A stretch of 64,000 nucleotides of DNA from Blastocatellia bacterium (GCA_016705245.1 JADIYM010000004.1:175167-239166); one strand, 5' to 3'. Numbered from the stretch's first letter, positions 56 to 63,264 are shown. Notes: generated by a model not told the origin, from the sequence alone. A program made the numbers and translations.

Positions 56-466
56 GTGAGCGATCAGACTTCGGTCGAGGCTACGACGCCGTACGATCAG
101 TTCGGGGGCGCGGATGCTGTCCGCGCCCTCGTTGATCGCTTCTACGACCTGATGGATTCGGATCCGGCGTATGCCGGCATCCGGTCTCTCCACGCGGCGA
201 GCCTCTCCGGCTCTCGAGAGAAGCTCCACCTATTCCTCTGCGGATGGCTCGGCGGGCCGCCGCTGTACGTCGAGCGGTACGGACATCCGAGATTGCGCGC
301 GCGGCACCTTCCGTTTCCGATCGGGGTCAGTGAACGCGATCAGTGGTTATCGTGCATGAAGCGCGCGCTGGCCGATGCGGACATCGACGACGCGTTGCGG
401 CGCCACCTGGAAGGCGCGTTCGCCCGCACTGCGGATCACATGCGGAACGCCGACATCCAGGGCTGA
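56..466 (+). CDS. glbO: group II truncated hemoglobin (2/2 Hb, GlbO-like)
   Basis: 136-aa ORF with GTG start. Motifs YDQFGG..VRALVDRFY..LHLFLCGWLGGP..RHLPFPIG..RDQWLSCM are typical of trHbO globins. Confidence 0.8.
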   Translation: MSDQTSVEATTPYDQFGGADAVRALVDRFYDLMDSDPAYAGIRSLHAASLSGSREKLHLFLCGWLGGPPLYVERYGHPRLRARHLPFPIGVSERDQWLSCMKRALADADIDDALRRHLEGAFARTADHMRNADIQG

Positions 467-587: not shown

Positions 588-1964
588 TCAGCCCTTGAAC
601 TGACTCACCACCGCCTGAATGCTCGCCTTCGCGTCTCCGAACAGCATCCGGACGTTCTGCTTGAAGAAAAGAGGGTTCTCGAGCCCCGCGAACCCGGCCG
701 CCATCGAGCGCTTCAGGACGTACACCGTTCTGGCGTGGTCGACGTTGATGATCGGCATCCCGTAGATCGGACTCGTTTCGTCATCGCGCGCCGAGGGGTT
801 CACCACGTCGTTCGCGCCGATGACGACCGCAAGATCGACGGTCGGCATTATCGGATTGATGTCGTCCATCTCGACGAGCTGCTCGTAAGGCACATCGGCC
901 TCGGCCAACAGCACGTTCATGTGACCCGGCATTCGCCCGGCAACCGGGTGGATCGCGAAGCGCACCTCGCAGCCATTCGCCTCGAGCAGCATGCCGAGCT
1001 CCTTGACCGTATGCTGCGCCTGCGCGACGGCCATTCCGTATCCCGGCACAAACACGACGGACCGCGCCGACTCGAAAACGTAGAACGCATCCTCGGCCGT
1101 AACAGCGGAAACCTCTCCACCTGCGCCCGATGCCGCTCCGGCAGTCGGCGCTGCGCCAAACCCGCTGAACAAAACGTGCCCGAGCGACCGGTTCATCGCC
1201 TTGCACATGATCTGCGTCAGGATGATCCCGCTTGCCCCGACCAGACTGCCGCTCACGATGAGCACCTTGTTGAGGATCACGAACCCCGCCGCCGCCGCGG
1301 CAAGGCCCGAGTAGCTGTTCAGCAGCGATATCACGACAGGCATGTCGGCTCCGCCGATCGGTATGACCGACATTACGCCCAGGACGAGTGAGAGCACGAT
1401 CGCGGCTATGACGTATGGATACGCGTTCACCGGATCGACGCACACGAGCACGCCGAGAACGACGAGAGCCGCCACGAGGAACCCGTTGGCGATCTGCTGA
1501 CCACGGAAGAGGAACGGCTTCCCCGACAGCACCGTTTCCGCCAGCTTGGAATACGCAACCACGCTTCCAGTGAACGTGACGGCGCCAATGAGCACCGCCA
1601 GATAGATCGCCACCATCGTCCCGACCGGGCTGTCGGGGTGTCGATGGTATTCAACCCAGCCGACGAGCAGGCTCGCCAGTCCTCCGAGGCCGTTGAACAG
1701 CGCGACCATCTCGGGCATCGACGTCATCTTGACCTTGTAGGCCGACACGGCCCCGATGGCCGAACCGATGACGACGCCAACCGCGATCCACTCGAACGAG
1801 ATCCCCTTGACGAGCAGCGTCGCAACGACGGCAATGAGCATGCCGACCGCCGACAGGCCGTTGCCCTTTCGAGCCGTCTCGGGCGAGTTCATCATCTTGA
1901 GACCGACGATGAACAGCACGCTCGCGACGATATAGCCCCAATCGATGATCGTCTCGAAACTCAT
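588..1964 (-). CDS. pntB: NAD(P) transhydrogenase subunit beta
   Basis: 458-aa ORF with a multi-TM N-terminus and a C-terminal NADP(H)-binding domain (GYGMAVAQAQH...GANDVVNP). Stop overlaps the upstream pntA alpha-2 gene. Confidence 0.9.
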   Translation of the reverse strand: MSFETIIDWGYIVASVLFIVGLKMMNSPETARKGNGLSAVGMLIAVVATLLVKGISFEWIAVGVVIGSAIGAVSAYKVKMTSMPEMVALFNGLGGLASLLVGWVEYHRHPDSPVGTMVAIYLAVLIGAVTFTGSVVAYSKLAETVLSGKPFLFRGQQIANGFLVAALVVLGVLVCVDPVNAYPYVIAAIVLSLVLGVMSVIPIGGADMPVVISLLNSYSGLAAAAAGFVILNKVLIVSGSLVGASGIILTQIMCKAMNRSLGHVLFSGFGAAPTAGAASGAGGEVSAVTAEDAFYVFESARSVVFVPGYGMAVAQAQHTVKELGMLLEANGCEVRFAIHPVAGRMPGHMNVLLAEADVPYEQLVEMDDINPIMPTVDLAVVIGANDVVNPSARDDETSPIYGMPIINVDHARTVYVLKRSMAAGFAGLENPLFFKQNVRMLFGDAKASIQAVVSQFKG

Positions 1965-4058: not shown

Positions 4059-4059
4059 G

Positions 4060-4140
4060 AGTTGACAGGATTACAGGATTCTCAGGATTGACAGGATTCT
4101 CTGCGCTTTTTCCATCCTGATAATCCTGTAATCCTGTCTA
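4060..4140. repeat. nested palindrome built from caggatt heptamers (hairpin family copy F); candidate bidirectional terminator between sugE and cls
   Basis: gacaggattacaggatt ... aatcctgtaatcctgtc is a perfect 17-bp inverted repeat. Inner tcaggattgacaggatt / atcctga copies and a gcgcttttt centre are also visible. Confidence 0.6.
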
Positions 4141-4151
4141 TTCTCCGATTC

Positions 4152-8863: not shown

Positions 8864-8914
8864 TCCAACAAACTATGCACGCGGAATCGCGAACTGCATA
8901 GGGCAGGCTCTCGT

Positions 8915-9022
8915 TGCTCTTTTGCGTCTTTGCGTCTTCCTCTGCGCCTTTGCGAGAACTTCTTTCTACGGATTGGAGAATTTCTCGCAAAGGCGCAGAG
9001 GAAGACGCAAGGCGCAAGATGA
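8915..9022. repeat. long imperfect hairpin (hairpin family copy B) in the divergent macro-gene / permease intergenic region
   Basis: tttgcgtctttgcgtcttcctctgcgcctttgcgagaa ... ttctcgcaaaggcgcagaggaagacgcaaggcgcaaga. Core is homologous to copy C at 32110. Confidence 0.6.
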
Positions 9023-9233
9023 GCAGTGAGCCGGCTCGAGGCACGGCAGGGATCCGTAGTTCGCGCCGGGACCTTGATCGAAAGTGACCCACTACCCTCG
9101 GCACGCGCTGCTTGACACGCTGATCCGAACAATCGTCTGATGGAGCGATTTCTTCGCTCGACAGCGCCTTCCTCGAGGTTCCCACGGTGACCCGTCTCGC
9201 AGCCGTCCAACGCCGGTTGATCAACGTGAGCCG

Positions 9234-11019: not shown

Positions 11020-11690
11020 GGTGGGTGGCCGAGCATCAGTACCGCGAGCGGTAGCGAGCTGGCCGGCGGACGGTCGTACGAAGCATTGAGCGTTCTGCGT
11101 CTGGTGGGAGGGGAACCCGCTCGCTCTCGCTCGCGGTACTGATCCTTTGTCAGTCGACTGTGCCTCGCAGGACGCGTCCGTCACTCTCACCTCTCTGACC
11201 TCGTTCGCTTTCAGTCGTACGACCCGCTCGCTCTCGCTCGCGGTACTGATCCTTTGCCAGTGGACTGTGCCGTGCAGGACGCGTCCGTCATATCGCCATG
11301 CATCTTGTGGCGGGATCAGTACCGCGAGCGATAGCGAGCGGGTCGATTTGGAGGCGGGATACGCCGGTGGTCGAGTGCGCTCGTTACCTATCGCGCAGCG
11401 ATTTCGTTCAGCGGACGTGTGTCCGCTGGCCGGGCCCGCTCTCGCTCGCCGTACTGATCCTTTGCCAAAGGACTGTGCCTTGCAGGACGCGTCCGTCATA
11501 TCGCCATGCATCTCGTGACAGGATCAGTACCGCGAGCGATGGCGAGCGGGTCGCACTGGAGGCGGGATACGCCGGTGGTCGAGTGCGCTCGCTACCTACC
11601 GCGCAGCGCTTTCGGTCAGCGGACGTCTGTCAGCTGGCCGGGCTCGCTCTCGCTCGCGGTAGTGACACATGCGGTGTCGGTGCTCTCCAC
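11020..11690. repeat. repeat region: one palindromic MITE/REP-like copy followed by about 2.5 tandem copies of a 208-bp unit carrying the same inverted-repeat core
   Basis: atcagtaccgcgagcggtagcgagc / gctcgctctcgctcgcggtactgat arms. Near-identical units begin around 11222 and 11430. Predicted ORFs here give the same peptide in shifting frames, so they are spurious. Confidence 0.75.
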
Positions 11691-16744: not shown

Positions 16745-17190
16745 CCAATAGCATCAGAACCGCGAGCGGTAGCGAGCTGGCCGGCGGACAGTGTTCAGGA
16801 CCACCCGCATCGTGCACTACCATGCAGGCCTGGTCCCGTTCCTTGAGCCGCGAGCGGTAGCGAGCGTCCCACGGACGGTGCCTGAACTCGCAGACTCCTC
16901 CTTGCGGAAGGACGGAAGTAATCGGAACCGGTCGACTGTCCGTGGGACGCTCGCTACCGCTCGCGGCTCAAAAAATCGGGGAAAACCGCAATACCAGGCA
17001 AGCGGAGCGGGCGGGGGGGGGCAAGGACGGCATAATCGGAACCGGTCGACTGTCCGTGGGACGCTCGCTACCGCTCGCGCCTCAATAAACGGGAAAACGG
17101 GGATAACGGGGATCACCCGCATCGTGCACTACCAGGCAGGCCTGGTCCCGTCCCTTGAGCCGCGAGCGGTTACCTACGAGAAGCACCGAT
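16745..17190. mobile_element. cluster of MITE/REP-like repeat copies (composite: type-II segment cacccgcatcgtgcactaccaggcagg plus TIR-bounded type-I units)
   Basis: The TIR gagccgcgagcggtagcgagcgtcccacggacgg and its reverse complement occur three times here. The same units occur at 25500, 40010 and 11030. Confidence 0.75.
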
Positions 17191-24083: not shown

Positions 24084-25571
24084 TGAGCGCGGCGTACAAC
24101 GCGAGTCGCGCGAGATCGGGCAGCTTTCCGAGCCAGGCAGGCACGCTGCCGCGCTCCTGAACGAGCTGCACCGCCTCGAGCAGAATGACGAAAGCGACGG
24201 TCAGCGCGAGCTCGATCCCGTCGAATCCAGGGACCGCGATAGGCTGCGCGGCGTCCGCCCAACTCGCAATCCGCATTATGACCGCGCTCGCGTCGCCGAC
24301 CGACTCAGCGCGGAAGAAGATCCATGCGAACGTCACCAGGTGGAACGTCGCGAGTCCGGCGACGAGCGGCCGCAGTCGAGCTGTCGCCGTGCCGGCCGCG
24401 GACCATGCCCTCTCGCGCAGACTGGATGAAGCGAGAGCCGCCACCATGAACCCGCCGTGCAGCGCTCCCCAAACCAGGTAAGTCCAGTTTGCCCCGTGCC
24501 AGAAACCGCTGACCGTGAAGACGATCATGAGATTCGCAGCGAGCCGCCACGCGCCGACCCTGCTGCCGCCGAGCGGTATGAACACGTAATCGCGAAACCA
24601 CGTCGAGAGCGAAATGTGCCATCGCCGCCAGAAGGCGCGAATCGAGGTTGCGAAGTAGGGCCGCTCGAAATTTCGCGTCAGGTCGAATCCGAGGACTCGA
24701 GCGGCACCGACGGCGATATCCGAGTACCCCGAGAAGTCGCAGTAGATCTGATAGGCGAAACAGTACGTTGCCACCGTCAGTCGCAAGCCGGATTGCGACG
24801 ATGGATCGTCGTAGACGGCATTCACGAAAACCGCCAGCCGGTCGGCGATCACGAGCTTCTTGAAGAAGCCCCACAACATGAGCCGGAGGCCCGACGCCGC
24901 CATCGCCGGATCGAATCGATGCTCGACGAGGAATTGCGGCAGAAGGTGTGCCGCTCGCTCGATCGGGCCGGCAACAAGCTGCGGAAAGAAGGCAATGAAG
25001 AGTGCGAAGCGTCCGAGATGACGCTCGGGCTCGCGCTCGCGACGGTAGATGTCGATCGTGTAGTTGAGAGCCTGGAACGTGTGGAACGAAATGCCGATCG
25101 GCAGAATGACGTCGAGATCGGGAATGCCATAAAGCACGTCGAACGACTCGGTGACCGAACGGAGCGTGTCGTTGACGAAGTTGAAGTACTTGAAGAAAAA
25201 GAGCAGTCCGAGATTGGACGCCAGACTGATGCCGAGGAAGAGCCGGCGGCGGGCCTCCGTCGATGCCCCGGCAATCACCCGCCCGGCAATGTAGTCTACG
25301 ATCGTGAGCAGCCAGATGACCGCTACGTAAGCGGGCTTCCAGCTTTATCAAAGTAGTAGGAGGCGACGAGCAGCCACGCCCATCGCACGCGGTGCGGGAT
25401 CAGGAAATAGACCACCGCGACGATCGGGAAGTAGACGAGAAAGTGGAGTGAGTTGAAGAGCACGAGATCGTGTGGTCTGGCGACGGGGGCGCTGCCCCGC
25501 GTGGATTCTCGCCGCGAACGCCGATCAGGCCAAGGGCGCATCAGAACCGCGAGCGGTAGCGACCGTCCCAC
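24022..25571 (-). CDS. MBOAT-family membrane O-acyltransferase (AlgI/DltB/PatA-like) with a 1-nt frameshift near 25345-25352
   Basis: N-terminal piece LHFLVYFPIVAVVYFLIPHRVRWAWLLVASYYF (frame 1, stop at 25323). Continues as SWKPAYVAVIWLLTIVDYIAGRVIAGAS...HTFQALNYTIDIYRRE...FPQLVAGPIERA (frame 2). The junction is at gataaagc (A-run). Confidence 0.75.
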
Positions 25572-25835
25572 GGACGGTGCCTGAAATCGCAGACTCGTCG
25601 TTGCGAAAGGACAGAAGTGACCGGAACCGTTCGACCGTCCGTGGGACGCTCGCTACCGCTCGCGGCTCATAAAACGGGGATCACCCGCATCGTGCACTAC
25701 CAGGCAGGACGCTCCGCCGGTCCCCGTTCCTCGTCCCCGTTTTTCGAGCAGCGAGCGGTAGCGAGCGTCCCACGGACAGTGCCTGAAACCGCCAGCGCCC
25801 TACTCATCGACGCAGCCTCGCCCGGCAAAACCTCT
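25500..25835. mobile_element. MITE/REP-like composite repeat copy (full type-I unit plus type-II segment plus extra left TIR)
   Basis: gaaccgcgagcggtagcgaccgtcccacggacggtgcctgaaatcgcagactcgtcgttgcgaaaggacag...ccgtccgtgggacgctcgctaccgctcgcggctca, then gatcacccgcatcgtgcactaccaggcagg. Confidence 0.75.
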
Positions 25836-25842
25836 CAGTCTC

Positions 25843-27228
25843 TCAGCTCGTCAGGTTCTCCACATCGCGGTACTCCGGCACGATCGCAGTCCATCCAAGT
25901 TCCCTTTCGATTCGCTTTCGAAGTCCCTCGGCCTGATCCGGCTCTCCGTGGGTGATGAACACGCGTCTCGGTTTCCCGTGAAAGCCGCGCAGCCACGCCA
26001 TCAATTCGTCGGTGTCGGCGTGTGCCGAAAGATTCGACACGGATCGAACCTCCGCACGCACGGGCACCAACTCGCCATGGATCTTCAATTCGGACGTTCC
26101 CGACACAAAGTCCGCGCCTCGCGTGCCGCCCGCCTGGTATCCAACGAATACGATCGAGTTCGCCGGATTCGGGGCGAGGGAGTGCAGGTGGTGAAGTACA
26201 CGACCGCCCGTGGCCATGCCGCTCGCCGAAATGATGACCTTCGGACGGTCGTCCGCCGAGAGTCGCTTCGAGTCTTCGACGGAGTTGATGTAGCGGGCTA
26301 CCCCGCACATGGAGGACGCTTCGCTGGCTGTCAGGCGATGTTGTCCCTCGGAGCGGACGAACAACTCCGTCGCGTTGACGGCCATCGGCGAGTCGAGAAA
26401 GACCGGAACGTCCGGAATTGCGCCCTTCGTCTTGAGCTGCGACAGAAACCAGAGAACCGATTGCGCGCGGCCGACGGCGAACGCCGGAATCAGCACCGTT
26501 CCACCGCGCTTCACGGTGTCGCGCACGATGTCGCCCAGCTCAACCATCGGATCGGTTTTCGGGTGACGCCGTATTCCATATGTAGATTCGACGACGAGAT
26601 AGTCGGCAGCCTCGATCGCCGACGGGGCGTTCATCAGCGGATCGTTGATGCGACCGACATCTCCCGAAAAGACCACGGTGGTTGTCTGACCGTCGTTCGA
26701 TACATCGTGCGATCGCTCGAAGACCGCGTGCCCCGCCCCGAGAATGTGGCCGGCGGGCACGAGCTTCACGCGCAACTCGCCTGTCAGTTCGAGCCACTCG
26801 CCGAACCGGATCGCCTGGAGCCGGTCTAACGCGCGTTCCGCGTCCTCAGTCGTATACAGCGGCTCTGCCGGGTGGTGTTTCGAATACCCACGCCGGTTTG
26901 CATAACGCGCCTCCTCTTCCTGCAGCTTCGCCGCATCGGGCAGCAGGATTCGACAGAGGTCACGGGTCGATTCGGAGCAGTAGACGGGACCCGAAAAGCC
27001 GTTCCTCACAAAAAGCGGCAGGTAGCCGCTGTGATCGATGTGCGCGTGAGTCAACACGACCGAGTCTACGGTCGACGGATAGATCGGCAGGTCGGCACGA
27101 TTCCGCAACCGGAGTTGCTTGTAGCCCTGAAAGAGGCCGCAGTCGACCATGACGCGGGTATCACCATCGACGAGAACGTGCTTCGAACCCGTGACGGTTC
27201 CGTTTGCTCCCAGAAACATGATCTGCAT
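25843..27228 (-). CDS. MBL-fold beta-CASP family RNA-processing hydrolase
   Basis: VLTHAHIDHSGYLP metal motif plus beta-CASP and C-terminal RNA-specificity regions. 461 aa. Confidence 0.8.
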   Translation of the reverse strand: MQIMFLGANGTVTGSKHVLVDGDTRVMVDCGLFQGYKQLRLRNRADLPIYPSTVDSVVLTHAHIDHSGYLPLFVRNGFSGPVYCSESTRDLCRILLPDAAKLQEEEARYANRRGYSKHHPAEPLYTTEDAERALDRLQAIRFGEWLELTGELRVKLVPAGHILGAGHAVFERSHDVSNDGQTTTVVFSGDVGRINDPLMNAPSAIEAADYLVVESTYGIRRHPKTDPMVELGDIVRDTVKRGGTVLIPAFAVGRAQSVLWFLSQLKTKGAIPDVPVFLDSPMAVNATELFVRSEGQHRLTASEASSMCGVARYINSVEDSKRLSADDRPKVIISASGMATGGRVLHHLHSLAPNPANSIVFVGYQAGGTRGADFVSGTSELKIHGELVPVRAEVRSVSNLSAHADTDELMAWLRGFHGKPRRVFITHGEPDQAEGLRKRIERELGWTAIVPEYRDVENLTS

Positions 27229-27354
27229 CGGGCTCCCTCCAATGTCGAGGGCGTCCTCTCCGGACGCCTCGCTGGTCTCGCTTCACGATCGAGAGTGGCG
27301 CTGACCGGCTCCGAGTGGGTCAATCTTAGACGCTCAAGGGATTGTATTAAACGA

Positions 27355-27435: not shown

Positions 27436-28290
27436 TCAGTCTTCCTCACCGGTCGCTATCGGCCGGCCGGGCTCCGAGATCCATTCACTCCACGAGCCCG
27501 CATAGAGCTTCGCGCCGGTTAGCCCGGCGTGAGCCATGGCAAGCAGATTCTGGCACGCCGTGACGCCGGAACCGCAGTAAGCAACCGTCGCTTCCGGAGT
27601 CACCGCACCGAGGACGTGTCGGAAGTCTACGGCGAGCTCGGACGCAGGCCGCATCGTCCCGTCCTCACGAACGTTCAATTTGAAGAACCGATTGCGCGCG
27701 CCCGGAATGTGTCCGCCCACCGGATCGATCGTCTCGTTTTCGCCCCGGAAGCGATCGGGTGCCCGCGAATCGAGCAGCAGCCGAGACGGATCCCCGCGCA
27801 TCGCGCCGACGTCGGCGGCGCTGGCCAGCATCTCGTGCCGGGGCGATGCCACGAACTCGACCGGCGTCGGCGCCGGGGCGTCCGTCGAGACGGCGCGTTG
27901 CTCCGAAATCCACTTCGTCACGCCGCCGTCGAGCACTGCCACCCGCTCGTGTCCCAGGAACTTCAGCATCCACCAGAGGCGCGACGCATACATTCCATCC
28001 GCGTCGTCATAGGCGACGACGTGCGACGCACTCGAGATACCCAGTCTCCCGAGCGTCGTCGCGATCGTTTCGACATCCGGCAGCGGGTGCCTTCCGCGCC
28101 CGCCGCCCGGCGGGTCCGAAAGGTCCCGGTTGAGATCGGCGTAGACCGCGCCCGGAATGTGACCGGCCGCATATGCGTTCCGCCCGTAGTCCGCGTCGGC
28201 CAGTGACGATCGGACGTCGACGACGACGAGTGACGGCCGGCCAAGCAATTCTGCAAGCTCATTCGTGGAGAGGATGGTCGAGAAACTCAC
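27436..28290 (-). CDS. sseA: 3-mercaptopyruvate/thiosulfate sulfurtransferase (tandem rhodanese)
   Basis: Two rhodanese domains. Catalytic CGSGVTA cysteine loop. Probable GTG start near 28290 (VSFSTILSTNELAELLG). Confidence 0.8.
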   Translation of the reverse strand: MSFSTILSTNELAELLGRPSLVVVDVRSSLADADYGRNAYAAGHIPGAVYADLNRDLSDPPGGGRGRHPLPDVETIATTLGRLGISSASHVVAYDDADGMYASRLWWMLKFLGHERVAVLDGGVTKWISEQRAVSTDAPAPTPVEFVASPRHEMLASAADVGAMRGDPSRLLLDSRAPDRFRGENETIDPVGGHIPGARNRFFKLNVREDGTMRPASELAVDFRHVLGAVTPEATVAYCGSGVTACQNLLAMAHAGLTGAKLYAGSWSEWISEPGRPIATGEED

Positions 28291-28381
28291 GCGTCGGGTC
28301 CTCCTGACGTTGAACGACGAAGCATCATCGTCTACGCTGCGCGATACCGCGCGCAAGCGTCGCAGGGCCGAGGCGCGTGCG

Positions 28382-29250
28382 ATGATCCGTACAAAGAAGG
28401 GTATGCAGGGAAAAAACGTCGTCATCACGGGGGGAAACTCCGGCATCGGACTCGAAGCCGCCGTTGCGATTGCCTCCGCCGGAGCCTCCGTGTGGATCGT
28501 CTCGCGCGACGCGCGCAGGGAAGCTCGCGCGCGACTCCATTCGACGGCGGAGCGGACAATCGGCCGTCGAACTGTTCGTTGCTGACCTCTCTTCCCAGGC
28601 CGAAATCCACAAACTTGCAGACCGGATCGTCGCGGACGTGGGCCGCCTTGACGTGCTCGTCAACAACGCGGGACTCACGATCGGCGATCGCATCACGACT
28701 GTGGACGGACTCGAAACGACCTTCGCCGTCAACCATCTTGCCTATTTCCTGCTGACGGGCCGTCTCGTCGGCGCGCTCAAACAGAGCGCGCCATGTCGCA
28801 TCGTCAATGTCGCCTCACAGGCACATCAGCGCGGCACGATGCACTGGGACGACCTTCAAGGAGAGCGCGGTTACAGCGGATGGAGCGCATACTGTCAGTC
28901 AAAACTGGCGAATGTGCTCTTCACGTTCGAGCTGGCGAGACGGCTCGAGGGCACGGGCGTTACCGCGAACTGCCTTCATCCCGGGGTGGTCGCGACCAAC
29001 TTTGCGACCAAGGGGCCGGGCTTTATCCGCTGGGTCTTCAAGCTCCTGCGGCCCCGTCCTCACGACGCCTGAGGACGGCGCGAAGACGACCATCCATCTG
29101 GCAACGAGCGAAGACGTCGCTGGCGTAACCGGCGAGTACTTTGAGCGTTGCCGCGTGGCGCGCGCATCGGCGGAAGCTCGGAACCCTGACAACGCGCGGC
29201 GCCTGTGGGAGGTGAGCGAGCGGCTCACGGGTTTCTCCTGGCCCGGATAG
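28382..29250 (+). CDS. short-chain dehydrogenase/reductase (retinol-DH-like), interrupted by two 1-nt frameshifts
   Basis: TGGNSGIGLEAA Rossmann motif (frame 1), NNAG...YCQSK (frame 2), and the C-terminus LTTPEDGAKTTIHLATSEDVAGVTGEYFE (frame 3). Shifts are at ctcgcgcgcgac (about 28533-28544) and at the cccc run (29052-29055). Confidence 0.7.
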
Positions 29251-31919: not shown

Positions 31920-32109
31920 GACTCCGTATCCAGCAAGCCGAATGCCGCTGCGGACTTCGTCCCATTCGGGCCAGATCTGCCAGTTTCCGGCTTCCCGACC
32001 GACAAAAACGTGTGGAGAATCGCCCTGCCAGTGGGAAACGTAACCCAGCAGGACTGTAGCAGGCTCACTTCAGGCATCACGGGTAGTGGGGTCACCTTCG
32101 ACCAAGGTG

Positions 32110-32196
32110 CACCTGCGCCTTTGCGCCTTTGCGCCTTTGCGAGAACTTCTTCGACGGCTTGAAGAGTTTCTCGCAAAGGCGCAAAGGCGCAAGAGA
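32110..32196. repeat. long hairpin with three tandem cctttgcg units per arm (hairpin family copy C); terminator-like, downstream of the 32226-33926 operon
   Basis: ctgcgcctttgcgcctttgcgcctttgcgagaacttcttcgacggcttgaagagtttctcgcaaaggcgcaaaggcgcaagag. Confidence 0.6.
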
Positions 32197-32225
32197 GCAA
32201 CTGACAGATTGACCCACTACAGGCA

Positions 32226-32783
32226 TCACGGCTCCGTCTGCCGCCGACCGCTGACGCCGGGGTGCTGCCTGGCCAGCTCGTCGAGCGCGGCCTGCACGCG
32301 CACGCGGACCTTTTCGTCGTGGTCCGACAGTGCACGCTCGAGCCACGGAATCGTGGTCTCGGCATCGGGGCGGTTCAAGTCCGTCGACAACGTCACGAGT
32401 GCGAGCGCCGCGCGCCGTCGCAGGTACACGTCGTCGTTCTGAAGCTCGACGACCCAGTACGACGCCGGACGGCTGTCGTATTTCGGCTCACCGAATGGAT
32501 ATCGATTTTCGACGGCCCACGAGAGGCCTACCCATCCGCCCAAAAGGAAAGTCACGACCACCCCGGCAACGAGCGCGATCTTCTTCCAGGGTATCGGAAT
32601 CCGGCCGGGCTCTATCGAATCCGGTCGCGCGGGCCTCGCAGGCTTCGGCATTCGCGGGCCGATCGGACCCGTTCCGAGCAGCGACGCCCCGCAGCGGGCG
32701 CACGCATAAGCCGCGATCGTGTTCGGCACGCCGCATTTCGGACAACGAATCGACTCGCCTGGGCCGGCCGACATCATCAACAC
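32226..32783 (-). CDS. hypothetical zinc-ribbon / single-TM / HEAT-like repeat protein
   Basis: CPKCGVPNTIAAYACARCG ribbon, one TM helix, and a C-terminal HEAT-like stretch DHDEKVRVRVQAALDEL. Confidence 0.45.
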   Translation of the reverse strand: MLMMSAGPGESIRCPKCGVPNTIAAYACARCGASLLGTGPIGPRMPKPARPARPDSIEPGRIPIPWKKIALVAGVVVTFLLGGWVGLSWAVENRYPFGEPKYDSRPASYWVVELQNDDVYLRRRAALALVTLSTDLNRPDAETTIPWLERALSDHDEKVRVRVQAALDELARQHPGVSGRRQTEP

Positions 32784-38559: not shown

Positions 38560-38695
38560 ACGGGCGGTCCACGCATCAGTACCGGGCGCGGTAGCGCTCG
38601 GGTCAGCCTCTCCGTTAGCCCGCTCCTGGTGTCGTCACACGCGCTCGGGATCGACCCGAGCGCTACCGCGCCCGGTACTGATGCGTGAGGCGTGC
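38560..38695. repeat. variant copy of the MITE/REP-like palindromic element
   Basis: catcagtaccgggcgcggtagcgctcgggtc ... gacccgagcgctaccgcgcccggtactgatg. Confidence 0.7.
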
Positions 38696-40009: not shown

Positions 40010-40205
40010 CGGGGTGCCTGGTAGTCCACGATGCGGCTGTTCCCCGCTTCTCCCCGTTTTTCGAGCCGCGAGCGGTAGCGAGCGTCCCACGGACGGTCGT
40101 TCGGTTCGATCACTTCCGTCCTTCCACAACGACGAGTCTGCGATTTCAGGCACCGTCCGTGGGACGCTCGCTACCGCTCGCGGCTCAAGGAACGGGGAAC
40201 GAGGA
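40010..40205. mobile_element. MITE/REP-like composite repeat copy (opposite orientation)
   Basis: gagccgcgagcggtagcgagcgtcccacggacgg ... ccgtccgtgggacgctcgctaccgctcgcggctca. The internal segment is the reverse complement of the 25548 copy. Preceded by a type-II segment in reverse orientation. Confidence 0.75.

Positions 40206-41703: not shown

Positions 41704-41704
<1 letters not shown>
40245..41704 (-). CDS. NtrY-like sensor histidine kinase (TM-HAMP-PAS-HisKA-HATPase) with a 1-nt frameshift near 40608-40614
   Basis: HisKA box IGHELNNSLAPIKS (frame 1, ends 40577). HATPase region LINLIRNAADAV...DDGLGI...GSGIGL (frame 2, 40245-40604). The ATG overlaps the ntrX-like stop (ATGA). Confidence 0.7.
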
Positions 41705-43053
<1,349 letters not shown>

Positions 43054-43191
43054 GTCGTCACCATCCCGGGAGTCGGACCCCGCCGTACCCTTGGCGCGCC
43101 GACGTCCTCGAACATACATCATCCTGAAACGGCACGGTGACTGGAAGGATCGGCGGTGTGATCCGGGGACAATCCTGCCAGAGAGGGAAGA

Positions 43192-43292
43192 GCACGCGGA
43201 TCTTGCGGATCACAGCGGATCGAGCGGAACTGATTGATGCCCGGATCCGCCTGACCCGCAACATCCGCACGATCCGCGTGCTCTTCTCTTTT
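43192..43292. terminator. approximately 30-bp inverted repeat hairpin downstream of the macB-like gene (minus strand); T-rich tail on the plus-strand side
   Basis: gaagagcacgcggatcttgcggatcacagcgg ... ccgcaacatccgcacgatccgcgtgctcttc, followed by tcttttc. Confidence 0.4.
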
Positions 43293-43302
43293 CGCCCATC
43301 AT

Positions 43303-44010
<708 letters not shown>

Positions 44011-44023
44011 TCCTTTCGCGTCA

Positions 44024-45278
44024 TCACTTCAATCGGATTCGTTCGAAGCCGTCCCAGGCGGACGTATCCGAGAGAATGATCTGATCCCCGGGCGAGAGTC
44101 CCTCGACCACCTCAACGGTGTTCACGGACGCGCGACCGAGTCGAACCTGAACGCGGACGGCCGCGGCGCCATCCTCGACGAGCTTGAAAAGACCGACCGT
44201 GCTCTGCGACTGGGCGTTGATCGGCCGATTGACGAATACGATGTCGTCGAGTCGCTCGATCTCAATCGTGCCGTCGACGGTCAGGTCGGGCCTGGCGCCC
44301 GACGGCAGCGGTTCGGAGAATGCCACATCGACCGTTACGGTTCCCTGCTGCGCTGCGGGATCGATTCGCGAAACCGTACCGGCGACGATGCCGTTCCGAG
44401 TGTCGACGAGTGCCTTCTGTCCGAGGGACGTCCTTCACCTGGGTCTCGGGCACTTTCAGCTCGGCCTTGAGCCTCGTCGGCTCGGCGACTCGCGCGAGCG
44501 GGGCGCCCGACGTCACGCGCTGCCCGACCTCGATCTCGACCCGCTGGAGGACTCCGGAGATGCCCGCCCTGACATTCAGGGCGCCAATCTGCGCACGCCG
44601 CAAATCTCTCGCAGCCTTAAGCTGATCGATGACGGCGCGCTGCGAAGCGAGTTGTGACTCCATGGACTGGCTCGCGAACTGGAGCCGCTCACGGGCGATC
44701 CGGAACCGGTTCGCCAGTTCATCTGCCGTTACGCGGGAAAGCTTCTGATTGAGTGGCGAGATCAGTCCCTTGGCAATCAGGACATCGTCGGCGTCGGCCC
44801 GGAGCTTCGCCTGCTTGAAGTCCGACTCGACTCGCGCGGCTTCGGCTTCCTGGGCGAGTATCTCGCTCTGAAGCTGGACGGACTGCCGGTCGAGATCGGC
44901 CTCGGCGGCCCTGAGTTTCAGGTCCGCGTCCTGCGCGGCGAGTTGAAGCTCCGGATTGCTCAGTTCGACGATGACGGTGTCAGCCTGGACCGTCGTCCCC
45001 GGCTGAACGGCGATGCGCTCGACCTGTCCGTCGGATCCAGCGGGGATTACGCGGATGTCGACGGGGACGAGCGTGCCGGTACCTCGTACCTGGCGCAGCA
45101 TCGGACCGCGCTCCACCTTTCCCGTCCATACGGCCGCTGCGTCCATCATCGGGTCCGCGGGCTTCAGGCGTGCCAGCGCGACGGTGATCGCCGCGACGGC
45201 GATGAGCCCGATCGCGGTCAAAGCGAAAAAACGGACCTTGCGGGCGCGTCTGGCAGACGTGGGTTTGACGATGTCCAT
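44024..45278 (-). CDS. HlyD/MacA-family periplasmic adaptor (membrane fusion protein) with a 1-nt frameshift near 44422-44428
   Basis: N-terminal TM anchor plus a coiled-coil hairpin (frame 1 to about 44425). C-terminal beta-barrel VDVAFSEPLPSGARPDLTVDG...VNRPINAQS (frame 2, 44024-44326). Junction at the ccc run. Confidence 0.7.
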
Positions 45279-45444: not shown

Positions 45445-45530
45445 GACTGCGTTTCTGCGTCTGCACTCCGCGTCTCTGCGAGAAGCAGTTTCTCGCAGAG
45501 ACGCGGAGTGCAGACGCAGAGACACTGAAT
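45445..45530. repeat. long hairpin (hairpin family copy D), terminator-like
   Basis: ctgcgtctgcactccgcgtctctgcgagaagcagtttctcgcagagacgcggagtgcagacgcag. Confidence 0.6.
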
Positions 45531-45575: not shown

Positions 45576-46112
45576 CTAGATCTCCACCTTCATCCGCGCG
45601 GCCTTACGCTGGATGAGGTCACGGCGCTGACCGATCTTCTCCATCGTCCTGGAAATCTCGCCCGTGTGGGCCTCGAACGCCGCCTTTCGCCGACTATGCG
45701 CCGAGAATGAGGCCACCGCTACGAGTAGTCCGAACCCCGCGAGCGTCGCCCCGACCGCCAGACTCCAGATCATCACGATCAGGCCACCGAACAAGATGAC
45801 CACACCAAAGATCCCCCGGCGGAAATTGCCCGCTCCCGGCTTCTTCGCCATCTCGACAAGATACCGCTTGTGCAACTCGTCGAGCTCGGCGACGAGCTCC
45901 GCAGCCTGGGCCTCATAGGCCTGGTACGTCGGGTCATCTTCGACCGACTTGCCTACCACCTTGAGCGCGATGCCATCATCGGTCCCAATGACCTTTATTA
46001 TTGCGTCGCACGATCGGCAGATGAACGATCGAGTGGATTTCGGGACCGGCAGCTCCGTCGCGCAGTTGGGACACGGCTGCACTTCAGCCGACGATTTCTT
46101 CGCATTTGACAT
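45576..46112 (-). CDS. hypothetical zinc-ribbon + TM protein
   Basis: Start MSNAKK. CPNCATEL...CRSCDAI ribbon. C-terminal TM helix VVILFGGLIVMIWSLAVGATLAGFGLLVAV. Confidence 0.4.
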   Translation of the reverse strand: MSNAKKSSAEVQPCPNCATELPVPKSTRSFICRSCDAIIKVIGTDDGIALKVVGKSVEDDPTYQAYEAQAAELVAELDELHKRYLVEMAKKPGAGNFRRGIFGVVILFGGLIVMIWSLAVGATLAGFGLLVAVASFSAHSRRKAAFEAHTGEISRTMEKIGQRRDLIQRKAARMKVEI

Positions 46113-46206
46113 ACTTCGACCTCGATCGGACCGTTGGAGCGTCTTTGGCACTCCGTCCGAACCGACGGTTGGTACCACAGCGGCGCGAATCGGCGCAAGG
46201 CTGGCC

Positions 46207-59223: not shown

Positions 59224-59427
59224 GGCATCGATCTCCCGTTCGGTTGAGGTGAGGTGGTGTGAACCGAAATCTGTCGCAAGATACCACAGCGTCCAAACGA
59301 GCGCCAAAAGCCGTGATCGCGCCTTTGGAACGCCTCGCGCGTTGACTCCACGGACCGAATGGAAGTATCAACGGCAACCAGAGGGCGCCTTTTTCCTCAT
59401 CTCATCCAATCCCATGCGAGTATCGCC

Positions 59428-61038
59428 ATGACTGACGACGTAACGTTGGACGGCCCGGACGGTCAGGATGCGGGACTTCGCGCACGGAGCAACTTCCTCG
59501 ACTTTCTCAATGACGTGCGTCCGTCAATGTTCGTCGAAGAGTCGTTGACGTGGCTCTTGAGGACTCAGCCGCCCTTCCACGTGCAGGCTTCCGATGTTGC
59601 CGAGCTCATTGCGGCGTGGGGTGAGGAGCGCTCCAGGCTCTCGCATCAGCCACGAAGCGTCTACTTTCTGAATGCGCTGCAACGTATCGTCGATGCGCAT
59701 CGCACGAACGCAATCCACGACTTCGATCCGGACGCGTTCCTCGCTGCAGTCGGTCCGAGTCTGGCAACGCTGTGTCCTTCGTCGGAAGTTGGCGGCCTGC
59801 ACGCGGGAATTCGCGACCTTCGGACGGCGATTTCGCGTCCGGCTGCTGTCGCGCCCGACGAGTCCGCCGGCGGTGACTCGATCGTGATCCAGGGGGCCAG
59901 CTATCCCCTCAAGGTCGGGCAGGAGATGGCGATAGCGCGGCTCGAACACGAGGCATACATGACGGACGACGTCTTCGAAGATGTCTTTCGCGATGTGCAG
60001 TCGGCGCTTTCCACGCGGGTCGGGATCCCCGTCCACACGGCGCTTCAGAGGATTGCGCGTGCAGCGGCGAGCATCTTCAACACCGGTCGCGTTCCGCAGG
60101 CGCTGCGGTTGTTCGCCTTTGTCGACGAGTCGTTCGGCCGTCTCAAGATCTCGCCGGAAGGACGGCTCGAGGTTCAGGCCGCGGTGCGAGAGTCGGACAT
60201 CAACGAGGGGCTGCTCGCGAAAGTCCTGCAGGACTCGGAGCGACGAGATGCCTCGGCGCCGATGGTCCGGACGCTGGGGTATCTGAACCCGTTCGATGCG
60301 TTGCTCGTGTTGGCCGAAGAGAAGCGTCGCGACCGCCGCCGCCTCTACCTCAATGCGTTCGAGGTGTACGGTGCGGACGCCATGCCGCTGCTCGTCGACC
60401 GGCTCGCGCCATCGGTCGTCAGTGCGCAGCCTTGGTACCTGACTCGCAACCTGCTCTACCTTCTGTCACGGATCGACGCCCCGGACGAGGGGACGCGGCG
60501 TCGCGCAATCGAGGCAGTCGGTCGCTTCGTGACGAGCGATCAGCCTCAGCTGAGGACCGCGGCGCTCGCCGCGCTCAAGCACCAGGGGGGACGCGAGGTC
60601 GTGCCTTACGTGGTTCGCGCCCTCGATCCGTCGGCTTATCCCGCGGGATCGATCGACGATACGGAAGCGCTCAAGCGCCATCTGTTTCAGGCCATGGACC
60701 TGCTCATCGAGAGCGGCAACGAGACGGCCATCTCAATCGTGGCGGAGCTCGCGACCGGCCATCGCGGCGCCGAGTTCGACCTCGGTGCCGCGCTCCGTGA
60801 TGAAGCATGTGTTGCGCTGTCGCGACGCAAGGCACCACTTCCGCGCCGCGCCGCGCTCGTCATCGCGAATCAACTGTCGTCTCAGGTCGGGAAGCGGTTC
60901 AAGTTCGTGACGGGCAATTTCTCGCTCGGCATCGATGCCCACGCGTGCAAGCAGCTCAGTGCGCTCATTGCCGACTCGCCGGAGCCAGAGGCTCGGGACG
61001 TGCTCGCCCATCCGCTGATGCTGAGGTTCCTGGAGTAG
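59428..61038 (+). CDS. hypothetical protein with C-terminal HEAT/ARM-like repeats
   Basis: About 536 aa. Repeated alpha-helical units near RRRAIEAVGRFVTSDQPQLRTAALAALKHQGG. Confidence 0.45.
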   Translation: MTDDVTLDGPDGQDAGLRARSNFLDFLNDVRPSMFVEESLTWLLRTQPPFHVQASDVAELIAAWGEERSRLSHQPRSVYFLNALQRIVDAHRTNAIHDFDPDAFLAAVGPSLATLCPSSEVGGLHAGIRDLRTAISRPAAVAPDESAGGDSIVIQGASYPLKVGQEMAIARLEHEAYMTDDVFEDVFRDVQSALSTRVGIPVHTALQRIARAAASIFNTGRVPQALRLFAFVDESFGRLKISPEGRLEVQAAVRESDINEGLLAKVLQDSERRDASAPMVRTLGYLNPFDALLVLAEEKRRDRRRLYLNAFEVYGADAMPLLVDRLAPSVVSAQPWYLTRNLLYLLSRIDAPDEGTRRRAIEAVGRFVTSDQPQLRTAALAALKHQGGREVVPYVVRALDPSAYPAGSIDDTEALKRHLFQAMDLLIESGNETAISIVAELATGHRGAEFDLGAALRDEACVALSRRKAPLPRRAALVIANQLSSQVGKRFKFVTGNFSLGIDAHACKQLSALIADSPEPEARDVLAHPLMLRFLE

Positions 61039-61062
61039 GCCGGGCGAGCCACCCGCGCGACT

Positions 61063-61163
61063 CCGTGTCTCTGTGACCCTGTGCCTCTGTGTGCGAAGCT
61101 CCTCAGATCGTCTCAAGAGCTTCGCACACAGAGACACGACGGCACAGAGGCACAGAGATCACG
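61063..61163. repeat. long hairpin (hairpin family copy E) between convergent genes; arms of ctctgtg / cacagag units
   Basis: gtgtctctgtgaccctgtgcctctgtgtgcgaagctcctcagatcgtctcaagagcttcgcacacagagacacgacggcacagaggcacagagatcac. Confidence 0.6.
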
Positions 61164-62382
61164 GAGTCGATGCTCCCGATGCCTTCGCCCGATCCGTCCA
61201 CCGAGCCGCCACACCCGCCAGTCCCTCGAAGGCCGCCTCGAGCACTGGCACGTCCGGCAGGTAGACGATCCGCATGAACCCGTCCTTCGGATCCATTCCG
61301 AATCCCGACCCGTGAACGAATAACACGCCAGCGGATTCGAGCACGTCGAGCACGAACGTCTCGTCCGTCTCTCCGCCGAGGTTGCCGAACTTCGCCATTA
61401 CATAAAAGGCGCCGGCGGGCTCATCGCAGCTGAACCCCGGTATCGAGTTCAGTCCGCTTACGGTCGCCGCACGTCTGGCTCGAAGCTTCGTCATCGCCGC
61501 GTCGAGATGCGAGCCGTCCGAAGCGAGCGCCACGGGAATCGCGAACTGCGGCGGCGTCGGGCTGCACAGCCGCGCGTCGAGTATCCGGCAAAGCGCCGCC
61601 TTGTACTCGCCCTGCAGGGCCTCGCCGTGCAGCGATAGCCAGCCAACCCTCCAGCCAGTTGCAAGAAACGCCTTCGAAAGGCTGTCGAATGCCACTACGG
61701 GCACGTCTCCGGCGATAGAGGAAATCCGCGGAGGCCGAGGACCGTACGTCAGCGTGTGGTACACCTCGTCGGCGAAGATGACGAGCTTGTGACGGCGCGC
61801 AAACTCGATCACCGAGAGAAGCGTTGCTTCGTCCCACACCGCGCCGGTGGGGTTGCTCGGGTTGATGATGACGATCGCGCGCGTCCGCTCATCGACGAGC
61901 GATTCGGCCTGTTCGAGATCCGGCTTCCAATGATCTTCGGGCACCTGTCGATACTGACGCTCCTCGGCATTGAGCTTGCACAACACTGCCGAGTAGAGCG
62001 GATAGCCGGGCATCGGCGTCAGCACATTGTCGCCAGGTTCGAGCATCGCCGTCATCGACGCCTCTATTCCCTCGCTAGCTCCCGACGTCACAAAGACGTC
62101 ACCCGGCGCGACGTCAACGTTCTGAACCTCCAGCGAGTTTGCGATCGCCTCGCGCGCGATCGGGACGCCATAGGACGAACCGTAGTAGTTCTTGCCATCG
62201 CGCATCGCCTGCACCGCGGCCTCGACGAGCGCCGGAGGCGTCTCGAAATCGTAGAGCAGCGGATCGCCGATGTTCAGATAGAGAATTCGACGCCCCTTGG
62301 CTTCGAGGGCAGCCGCCTTCGTGGCGATATTGCGTATGGCATACTTCAGGCCGGCGATACGAGAGGCTGGAGATACGTGCAC
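61159..62382 (-). CDS. alaA: pyridoxal-phosphate-dependent alanine aminotransferase (class I/II)
   Basis: About 408 aa from a probable GTG start (VHVSPASRIAGLKYAIRN). PLP-lysine block SLSKAFLATGWRVGW. The long upstream ORF extension to 63051 was rejected. Confidence 0.8.
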   Translation of the reverse strand: MHVSPASRIAGLKYAIRNIATKAAALEAKGRRILYLNIGDPLLYDFETPPALVEAAVQAMRDGKNYYGSSYGVPIAREAIANSLEVQNVDVAPGDVFVTSGASEGIEASMTAMLEPGDNVLTPMPGYPLYSAVLCKLNAEERQYRQVPEDHWKPDLEQAESLVDERTRAIVIINPSNPTGAVWDEATLLSVIEFARRHKLVIFADEVYHTLTYGPRPPRISSIAGDVPVVAFDSLSKAFLATGWRVGWLSLHGEALQGEYKAALCRILDARLCSPTPPQFAIPVALASDGSHLDAAMTKLRARRAATVSGLNSIPGFSCDEPAGAFYVMAKFGNLGGETDETFVLDVLESAGVLFVHGSGFGMDPKDGFMRIVYLPDVPVLEAAFEGLAGVAARWTDRAKASGASTP

Positions 62383-62478
62383 GTTACGATCCTTTCGGAA
62401 TTGAGCTGCCGAACTCGGCGATTGTAGATGGAAATCAAGAGAACGGAAACTCGCGCGATCGATCGGGCTCGCGAACGG

Positions 62479-63264
62479 ATGGCCTTGACCTCTGTCCTGG
62501 CATTCCTGCTCGTGACGAGTGTCTCCTGCACGACCGGGACCGAGCCGGCTCCTCAAACCAACGCGAACGAGAACTCCACGGCGACCAACACCGCCGCGCA
62601 ACAGGCCGATACCGGTGAGCAGGCCTACGGACGCGCGGCCATGCGACTCCAGATCAAGTACATCCCGAAGCGCACCGTAACCGGCGGCGTGGCATTCGCC
62701 ATCGACGCGCCAGGCGGGCCGATCGTGCTCACGTCGGCGCACATCATCGCGACTATGGGCAATGGCAAGAAGCTCGAGTCGGTTTCGATCGTGGATGGCG
62801 TGACGCGCGAGCCCGTCTGCAAGACACTCGGGGTCGTCTGGGCGGGCAAGACGTTCGAAGGATTCGACTTTTCGAAAGACGTGACCGCGCTGGCGGTCGA
62901 GGATTTGCCCGAGTCGATCGTGAGGCTGAAACTCGCCACCGATCGACCGGCAATTGGAACGCGTGTCCGAATTCTCGGGATTCCGTCTGACGGCTCGACC
63001 ACGCAGGTGTCGATCGACGGCGTCGTCACCGTCGCCACATCTCTTCGCCACGAGATCGACATCGATCCGACGGTGAAGGGCCGGGGGCTTGCCGGCTCAC
63101 CAATCGTGCTCGAAGCGACGGGCCAGGTCATCGGAATCGTGCAGGCCGTCACGGCGAAGCAGGGCCGTGCATTCGTGATCGCCACGCCCGCCGAGGCCAT
63201 CCTCAGGCTCGTGCCGACGGCCAAGCCTGAGATCCAGCCCATCTCGGTCTGGACTGGTCAGTAG
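62479..63264 (+). CDS. trypsin-like (S1/chymotrypsin-fold) serine peptidase lipoprotein
   Basis: Signal/lipobox MALTSVLAFLLVTSVSC. LTSAHII His block. GLAGSPIV is a GDSGGP-like Ser block. Confidence 0.6.
   Translation: MALTSVLAFLLVTSVSCTTGTEPAPQTNANENSTATNTAAQQADTGEQAYGRAAMRLQIKYIPKRTVTGGVAFAIDAPGGPIVLTSAHIIATMGNGKKLESVSIVDGVTREPVCKTLGVVWAGKTFEGFDFSKDVTALAVEDLPESIVRLKLATDRPAIGTRVRILGIPSDGSTTQVSIDGVVTVATSLRHEIDIDPTVKGRGLAGSPIVLEATGQVIGIVQAVTAKQGRAFVIATPAEAILRLVPTAKPEIQPISVWTGQ

Follow-up and report, generated by a model that had tools for sequence, protein, structure and literature searches.

Gene-end palindromes with tandem-unit arms in a Blastocatellia bacterium look like REP/MITE-type elements and are probably transcript-end hairpins

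Correia elements (CREE) of Neisseria and the similar MITEs ERIC, RUP and BOX are non-coding transposons of 100–200 bp whose transcript forms one long hairpin; they are found near gene ends, may act as a terminator or RNA-processing site, and possess inverted ends and target duplications (TA for Correia). A G+C-rich stem-loop directly past the stop codon is the layout of intrinsic terminators. REP/BIME/REPIN sequences are multi-copy extragenic imperfect palindromes, located mostly past coding regions between convergent or co-directional genes, with complementary stem changes in their subfamilies and mobility in some cases, and roles in mRNA 3'-end stabilisation and termination have been proposed for those of E. 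coli and Pseudomonas (PMC3733652). Intergenic tandem arrays of 7-nt units are known from the cyanobacterial heptamer repeats (STRR, TAACTGA); among the long simple repeats of bacteria heptamers are the most frequent and are attributed to polymerase slippage, and their patchy cross-phylum distribution suggests horizontal spread (extract of PMC4679880, citing Mrazek 2007). Finally, template switching between the arms of inverted repeats is well established as a process that homogenises the arms and inverts the spacer, and in quasipalindromes it changes two arms simultaneously (extracts of PMC8604942 and PMC7202029).

We describe here a set of hairpins from a window of 64,000 nt, the whole stretch of Blastocatellia DNA that was analysed, which in their architecture look like REP/MITE-like palindromes with tandem-unit arms. 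In Correia-type elements the long terminal repeats pair, whereas the mobile copies found here carry a separate internal tandem-arm palindrome between short 12-bp ends; sequence, host range and duplication differ as well, and most family members are without any ends. Intrinsic terminators share the G+C-rich stem-loop directly past the stop codon and, in the Bacteroidota members of the family, the flanking A- and T-runs, but the window copies have no U-tract, their stems are three to five times longer and their quality is symmetric on both strands. With quasipalindrome template switching the hairpins have simultaneous two-arm changes, arm homogenisation and spacer inversion in common; this is however a mutational mechanism and not an element family, and we know of no description in which it builds genome-wide gene-end hairpins with tandem-unit arms. 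All traits of REP sequences listed above recur here, but REP stems measure 5–13 bp and carry a GTAG or CGTC tag (PMC3733652), compared to arms of 28–54 nt made of 7–8-nt tandem units in the window, and the hairpins themselves bear neither tag, GTAG occurring only in the transposon ends around two of them. REP sequences also depend on RAYT tyrosine transposases and make no target duplication, in contrast to the inverted ends and 8–11-bp duplications of the mobile copies here, duplications that speak against RAYT-type movement, and the same core is in our case found across phyla. Heptamer repeats share the intergenic tandem 7-nt arrays, but these are direct arrays, often just upstream of starts (extract of PMC4679880), while here they are mirrored as inverted arrays past stops. 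Our literature search returned no description of hairpins built from inverted tandem-repeat arms, and matches to the hairpin sequence strings were unrelated primers and shRNAs only. The reading we prefer, with a probability of roughly 60%, is that of REP/MITE-type palindromes in intergenic DNA whose symmetry is maintained at the DNA level and which work as transcript-end hairpins, and not that of one conserved RNA gene.

An inverted-repeat search of the window recovered all six hairpins of the original prediction at their places, together with a seventh of the same style that had been overlooked (H7, 43184–43289). Arms across the window hairpins range from 28 to 54 nt and are 81–97% complementary, and RNAfold energies lie between −47 and −95 kcal/mol on either strand, in a window of 63% G+C where any 120-nt piece of such DNA folds at −45 to −60 kcal/mol. 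The proposed comparison with shuffled sequence, made here for the window, gave 12 long hairpins in a gapless hairpin scan against none in 30 dinucleotide shuffles. As the 481 copy falls just below the gapless threshold, these 12 include five of the six predicted copies and H7; the remaining six, whose spacers measure about 55 nt, are members of a separate, unrelated repeat family. Tandem units of 8–9 nt were detected by Tandem Repeats Finder in both arms of the first, second, third, fourth and sixth copies and of H7. It detected no such units in the 45445 copy, where the periodicity of the arms is loose (0.39), so that the description of arms made of tandem 7–8-nt units fits five of the six copies and is weak for that one. 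A hairpin at every gene 3' end of the window was considered and is not demonstrable with crude gene calls and the high background folding; several convergent gene pairs within the window have none. We also observed a second repeat family, unrelated to the hairpins, at 11032–11665, 16760–17170, 25544–25780, 38570–38687 and 40051–40198, with 15 occurrences of its motif CCGCGAGCGGTAGCGAGCG (≤3 mismatches) against 0.2 expected, inverted pairs 50–60 nt apart, one stretch forming an array with a 208-nt period, and GTAG within it; it looks like REPIN/BIME-type clusters.

The flanking genes are real by Pfam, and the gene context had been read correctly: the copies at 481, 4060 and 61063 lie between convergent genes, those at 32110 and 45445 just past a stop codon in co-directional pairs, and the 8915 copy between divergent genes. 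H1 (476–557; arms 483–510/523–550, 28 nt, 86% complementary) is a palindrome of CCTTTGCG units with a tandem period of 8, situated between the convergent genes for a globin (56–466, plus strand) and PntB (588–1964, minus strand). H2 (4059–4147; arms 4059–4091/4111–4143, 33 nt, 88%) has four ACAGGATT units in its left arm and three in its right, begins one base past the stop of the SMR gene (4058) and ends 8 nt short of the stop of the convergent PLD/cardiolipin synthase gene (4152). The H2 unit ACAGGATT, repeated four times at 4065–4101, resembles the GGA-containing CsrA binding motif; the GGA motifs sit in the stem and not in loops, and the likeness is therefore probably a coincidence. H3 (8914–9096; hairpin 8910–9030, arms 8910–8963/8977–9030, 54 nt, 81%) is the one-ended remnant of a MITE between divergent genes, and H4, the flagged copy (32082–32220; hairpin 32114–32199, arms 32114–32152/32161–32199, 39 nt, 87%), a complete MITE with CCTTTGCG units past a stop codon in a co-directional pair. 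H5 (45451–45523; arms 45451–45484/45490–45523, 34 nt, 97%) is a near-perfect 34-bp palindrome of TCTCTGCG units, 52 nt past the stop of the gene at 45576–46178 (minus strand) in a co-directional pair. H6 (61061–61166; arms 61061–61107/61111–61157, 47 nt, 81%) consists of CTCTGTG units between the convergent gene 59359–61038 (plus strand) and an aminotransferase gene (61159–63051, minus strand). H7 (arms 43184–43210/43263–43289, 27 nt, 93%, the stem running on inwards; −73.6 kcal/mol), with GCGGATC units and a tandem period of 9, follows the stop codon of an ABC ATPase gene (43303–44010, minus strand) by 13 nt and lies upstream of a co-directional sigma-54 activator gene (41704–43122, minus strand). 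Altogether, six of the seven window copies have a stop codon 0–52 nt ahead of the stem base, which bears out the view of the hairpins as gene-end features. As a side observation, the HlyD-family adaptor gene at 44027–45278 (minus strand; its true start is 45278, not 45353) shows a frameshift near 44427/44428 relative to 418-aa homologues, with residues 1–284 in one frame and 285–418 in another (tblastn), and is either a pseudogene or affected by a sequencing error.

The family core reads GCGCCTTTGCG-WGAA...TTCW-CGCAAAGGCGC, in full (N)CTYTGYG units, W-GAA, a loop, TTC-W and CRCARAG units. In a pattern scan for GCCTTTGCGNGAA-N(10–40)-CGCAAAGGC with one genome per species it was carried by at least 113 loci, so that related genomes do share the family. 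Among the loci listed, most belong to Pyrinomonadaceae, Blastocatellia or other Acidobacteriota, and further ones to Bacteroidota (Sediminibacterium, Terrimonas ferruginea, Flavitalea, Flavobacterium hercynium, Cytophagales), Planctomycetota (Gemmataceae, Planctomycetia), Armatimonadota (Fimbriimonadaceae) and Sphingomonadaceae (Sphingomonas, including Sphingomonas floccifaciens, and Sphingopyxis). Several of these non-acidobacterial carriers are cultured isolates, and binning artefacts are thus no explanation. CTTTGC units extend into both arms at nearly all loci listed. A covariance model trained on 58 copies from other genomes only, and run on the window without filters, found five window copies at 30–69 bits: 32116–32197 (H4, 68.7 bits), 8929–9011 (H3, 67.9), 45455–45519 (H5, 63.6 and 63.5 on the two strands), 476–557 (H1, 53.0 and 51.8) and, as a distant member, 61066–61152 (H6, 30.3, E about 2e-6); the same model also recovers orthologues in relatives. 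H2 (13.3 bits, E 0.28) and H7 (9.9 bits, non-significant) share the architecture only. The five found by a model trained on foreign copies therefore represent a cross-phylum family, and the notion that all six predicted hairpins form one family has to be given up for the caggatt copy, H2; the homology asserted between the 8915 and 32110 copies is real and reaches the 481 copy too.

No Rfam family matched the hairpins at the gathering threshold, and the sub-threshold matches were only to eukaryotic miRNA-precursor models, on both strands, which means merely that these are long hairpins. It is very improbable that they represent structured small RNAs or cis-regulatory RNA elements, for instance 5' UTR switches: the folds are very stable and H3 lies upstream of two divergent genes, as such a role would suit, but besides the Rfam result neither loops nor bulges are conserved, the loop being variable and even invertible, and H3 is an insertion absent from relatives (see below). 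Plasmid BLAST of the hairpins yielded zero matches and a pattern scan of IMG/VR a single one, so that a phage or plasmid origin is unsupported. Slippage does not account for a stem that is nearly identical in Sphingomonas, Flavobacterium/Chitinophagaceae, Planctomycetes and Acidobacteria; this cross-phylum identity needs either a tiny element that is passed on horizontally or a recognition factor that these groups share.

The attC consensus of integrons is the loose RYYYAAC/GTTRRRY pattern. We observed a sharply bounded 99–103-bp subfamily, CTCAACCCTTTGCG...CGCAAAGGGTTGAG, that is near-identical across several Pyrinomonadaceae genomes (loci L025, L026, L032, L055, L065–L067, L070, L086 and L113); no target duplication is visible at its copies, and its ends ACTCAAC...GTTGAGT, found in this one Pyrinomonadaceae subfamily only, fit the attC-type pattern. 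They speak for a reading in which the palindromes are recombination sites, or binding sites in DNA or RNA, for a factor that reads CTYTGYG units, be it a BIME-like nucleoid- or gyrase-type binder, an attC-like folded site or a dedicated transposase. In line with this, at least two tandem CTTTGC units are kept in almost all of the 113 loci listed, across phyla, with outer pairs 1–6 Watson-Crick in 77–95%, and the unit types CTTTGCG and CTCTGTG recur in distant phyla. However, no recurrent neighbour gene, integrase or transposase was seen at the loci inspected, copies are scattered singly and not in cassette arrays, the same architecture is built from many other unit sequences, and the consensus is weak enough for chance matches. 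The window copies themselves have no RYYYAAC...GTTRRRY ends and stand singly, flanked by ordinary genes, with no cassette array. We consider a dedicated factor of this kind quite unlikely.

Two of the hairpins, H3 and H4, are contained in a non-coding element of about 140–230 bp with 12-bp ends GGTAGTGGGTCA and target duplications of 8–11 bp, varying between 8, 9 and 10–11 bp. The left end of H4 (GGTAGTGGGGTCA, 32082–32094) and its right end (TGACCCACTAC, 32210–32220) are flanked by the target-site duplications AGGCATCACG(G) of 10–11 bp (32072–32081) and AGGCATCACGG (32221–32231), in reverse-complement view CCGTGATGCCT on both sides, the right one holding the stop codon (32226–32228, minus strand) of the gene at 32226–32783. 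In the 93% relatives L119 and L120 the H4 element has one unit less, and it is absent in the 77% relatives L123 and L125, where the flank is too diverged for a clean empty site. H3 retains its right terminal inverted repeat (TGACCCACTACC, 9085–9096) and one copy of the target duplication (CTCGGCACG, 9097–9105) and has lost its left end with about 60 bp deleted in the window; in the 95% relative L114 the element is whole, its two ends being present as well as the direct repeat CTCGGCACG, and in the 82% relatives L115 and L118 the site is empty, with a spacer of 43 nt, exactly the length predicted once the element and one copy of the repeat are taken out. The same ends recur in independent copies on a metagenome contig (L133), with a decayed 11-mer duplication, and in another Pyrinomonadaceae genome (L108), with a perfect 8-bp duplication CAGTCGAA. 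By their inverted ends and target duplications, and in the case of H3 a clean empty site, H3 and H4 are classed as MITEs. Transposition also explains the placement of H3 in a divergent promoter region, and the additional promoter or 5' UTR role that had been suggested for this copy is unneeded. The flanks of H1, H2, H5, H6 and H7 show neither terminal inverted repeats nor a target duplication. No autonomous transposon with matching ends was present among the fetched loci, only ordinary genes and no transposase lie between the paired copies in L029 and L026, scanning metagenomes for one MITE end turned up just one further copy, and a loose search for GTAGTGGGTCA with two errors allowed returned mostly noise. 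A solo sequence GAGTGGGTCAATCT at 27313–27326, in the spacer of the genes 25843–27228 and 27436–28446, is like one end of the H3/H4 transposon.

By its protein homologues the window stems from a Blastocatellia/Pyrinomonadaceae-like acidobacterium. Comparison of syntenic contigs from relatives at 93–95% and 76–82% protein identity revealed that the hairpins are kept at orthologous sites over this whole range (76–95%). In the globin/PntB spacer (IG1, H1) a hairpin is present in all three lineages compared, including L114 and L115/L118, with three versus four units per arm and with both arms altered together, reading TCTCTGCG/CGCAGAGA in one lineage and TCTTTGCG/CGCAAAGG in another. The H3 units CCTTTGCG/CGCAAAGG are CCATTGCG/CGCAATGG in the 95% relative, and the seven central bases, ACGGATT in the window, are inverted to the reverse complement AATCCGT in L114. 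H4 is one unit longer than in the 93% relative L119. The H5 orthologues in L127 and L128 are hairpins with CTTTGCG-type arms, four double changes separating H5 from L127; in one strain (L128, 1943–2057) the orthologue has an insertion of about 60 nt in the loop and has retained the tandem-unit arms. The H7 orthologue in L127, at 76% identity, is a hairpin with rearranged GCGGAT units, so that this architecture was already present in the one relative compared. A sister copy of H6 in the 95% relative L130 has identical ends CGACTCCGTG...CACGGAGTCG in a different gene context and is nested within a further palindrome. At the H2 site the stem of the 82% relative measures 7 bp, GAGTGGA...TCCACTC (GAGTGGAcaatcctTTCCACTC in L115); the 95% relative L114 has a single GACAGGAT/ATCCTGTC unit and the window four and three units per arm, with the outer stem base unchanged. 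According to this series, the long H2 stem has grown in place from a short one. Between the near-identical strains L115 (18862–18940) and L118, which have the same protein and come from different samples, a unit of the 3' arm has changed from CGCCAAGGACT to CGCAAAGGTCT; this brings the unit nearer to the consensus but leaves it unpaired, a hint that the tandem units of an arm may convert one another.

Pairwise mapping of orthologous and sister copies gave about 14 pairs altered on both sides, transversions included, and in the outer arms of the family (58 foreign copies) 182 cells carry double changes compared to 92 ± 8.5 in shuffled and 46–69 with slid partners. That the stems are kept by paired changes, as originally stated, is thus well borne out; as evidence for an RNA made from one strand, however, this covariation fails. 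The covariance-model scores are near equal on both strands for each window member, and among 57 co-directional loci the stabler fold is that of the sense strand in 28 and that of the antisense strand in another 28, each strand having 57 predicted G-U pairs; furthermore one loop is inverted. Strand symmetry, loop inversion and paired changes together fit template switching between the arms at the DNA level. In a palindrome, 'compensatory changes' are therefore no proof of a functional RNA, and the lineages compared here provide natural cases of palindromes that are lengthened unit by unit, homogenised and loop-flipped.

These results bear directly on whether the hairpins are conserved factor-independent bidirectional RNA terminators, the covariation then reflecting selection on the RNA stem. 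Six of the seven window copies lie just past stop codons, three of the hairpins between convergent genes, double changes preserve the stems, hairpins are kept at orthologous gene ends, and Bacteroidota members, with an A-run before and a T-run after the stem, have the classic layout of a bidirectional terminator. Such flanking runs are however confined to the Bacteroidota members of the family. A stem-plus-T-run scan found no U-tract 3' of the stem at any window copy, and in the window hairpin-plus-T-run sites are not enriched (13 versus 8.9 ± 2.7), which contradicts an assignment to canonical factor-independent terminators; no acidobacterial copy has a U-tract, and the mean over 57 family members is 2.7 T in the 12 nt past the stem. 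The absence of any sense/antisense asymmetry in stability and G-U pairs, arms of 28–54 bp that are several times longer than terminator stems, the transposon origin of H3 and H4, the former of which landed in a divergent promoter region, and a spread over gene-pair types that equals background all argue in the same direction, and we regard such conserved RNA terminators as unlikely.

The position of the hairpins relative to genes can be read in two ways. The hairpins of the 57 co-directional loci follow the upstream stop at a median of 35 nt, and in 36 cases the next start is farther away than this stop. Over 88 loci of other genomes the gene-pair types are 22/65/14% convergent/co-directional/divergent, equal to a background of 19/64/17% by crude ORF calls, as expected of a neutral mobile element. 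The palindromes might accordingly do nothing for the host and be selfish or neutral mobile elements and by-products of mutation, found at gene ends only since insertions elsewhere are lethal. The transposon ends, target duplications and empty site of the H3/H4-type copies, the H6-type copy in another gene context in L130, the strand symmetry and the near-identity of the 99–103-bp subfamily across several Pyrinomonadaceae genomes would all be in keeping with this. On the other hand, H1, H2, H5 and H7 are fixed at the same gene ends down to 76–82% protein identity with their stems maintained. Long palindromes are normally unstable, and these have nonetheless persisted. The long H2 stem was made from local sequence, so that H2 did not arrive as an element; H7 is outside the family as well; and in a stretch of the Sediminibacterium chromosome a hairpin stands at nearly every gene end. 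We find an absence of any host function doubtful, though less so than conserved RNA terminators.

Based on their position, the palindromes probably act as U-tract-less transcript-end hairpins on either strand, and this role is, given position and long persistence at gene ends, the most likely function. In the transcript-end reading that we prefer, the arms would lengthen through replication slippage of the 7–8-nt units, and template switching or recombination between the arms would keep them complementary at the DNA level, which makes the element strand-symmetric. Transcribed from either side, the stem of 28–54 bp would form 0–52 nt past the stop codon, where it could stop or pause RNA polymerase in spite of the missing U-tract, block 3'-to-5' exonucleases, or both, and so give a stable mRNA 3' end in the manner of REP and Correia elements. 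The host would tolerate or favour the palindromes for this effect. To our knowledge, Acidobacteriota and other phyla largely lack hairpin-plus-U terminators and the ending of transcripts in them is poorly known; a dense and easily recognised class of gene-end palindromes would offer concrete sites for 3'-end mapping.

The tandem-unit architecture extends beyond the sequence family. Of the 152 long hairpins with short loops in some 1 Mb of fetched sequence, 48 have arms that are periodic at 7–8 nt, a periodicity shown by 0.3% of shuffled arms, and the units concerned are many and unrelated (GAACGAT, AATCGTG, AGTGCTG, AAGGTTC, AGTTCCG, AATGTTC, CTCTGTG). The Sediminibacterium stretch with a tandem-arm hairpin at nearly every gene end spans 8 kb of a chromosome of 45% G+C. 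It is tempting to speculate, and we offer this tentatively, as possible but falling well short of our preferred reading, that Blastocatellia, Chitinophagaceae and some further soil and freshwater bacteria share an undescribed route to gene-end hairpins, in which 7–8-nt units are duplicated in mirrored fashion from the inside out via template switching at the DNA level, and in which the units CTTTGCG, CTCTGCG and CTCTGTG have either spread horizontally as a mobile hairpin or are read by a shared factor. If so, the palindromes would constitute a distinct, self-extending class of transcript ends and not ordinary REPs, MITEs or terminators.

The palindromes also leave traces in assemblies. Two independent short-read contigs, L121 and L122, both start exactly in the loop of the H4 orthologue, and hairpins of this kind thus break short-read assemblies. 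Separately, assembly GCA_964641945.1, the source of L044 and L119, is titled 'uncultured Clostridia bacterium', yet its contigs are syntenic with the acidobacterial window at 93% protein identity, and the label looks wrong.
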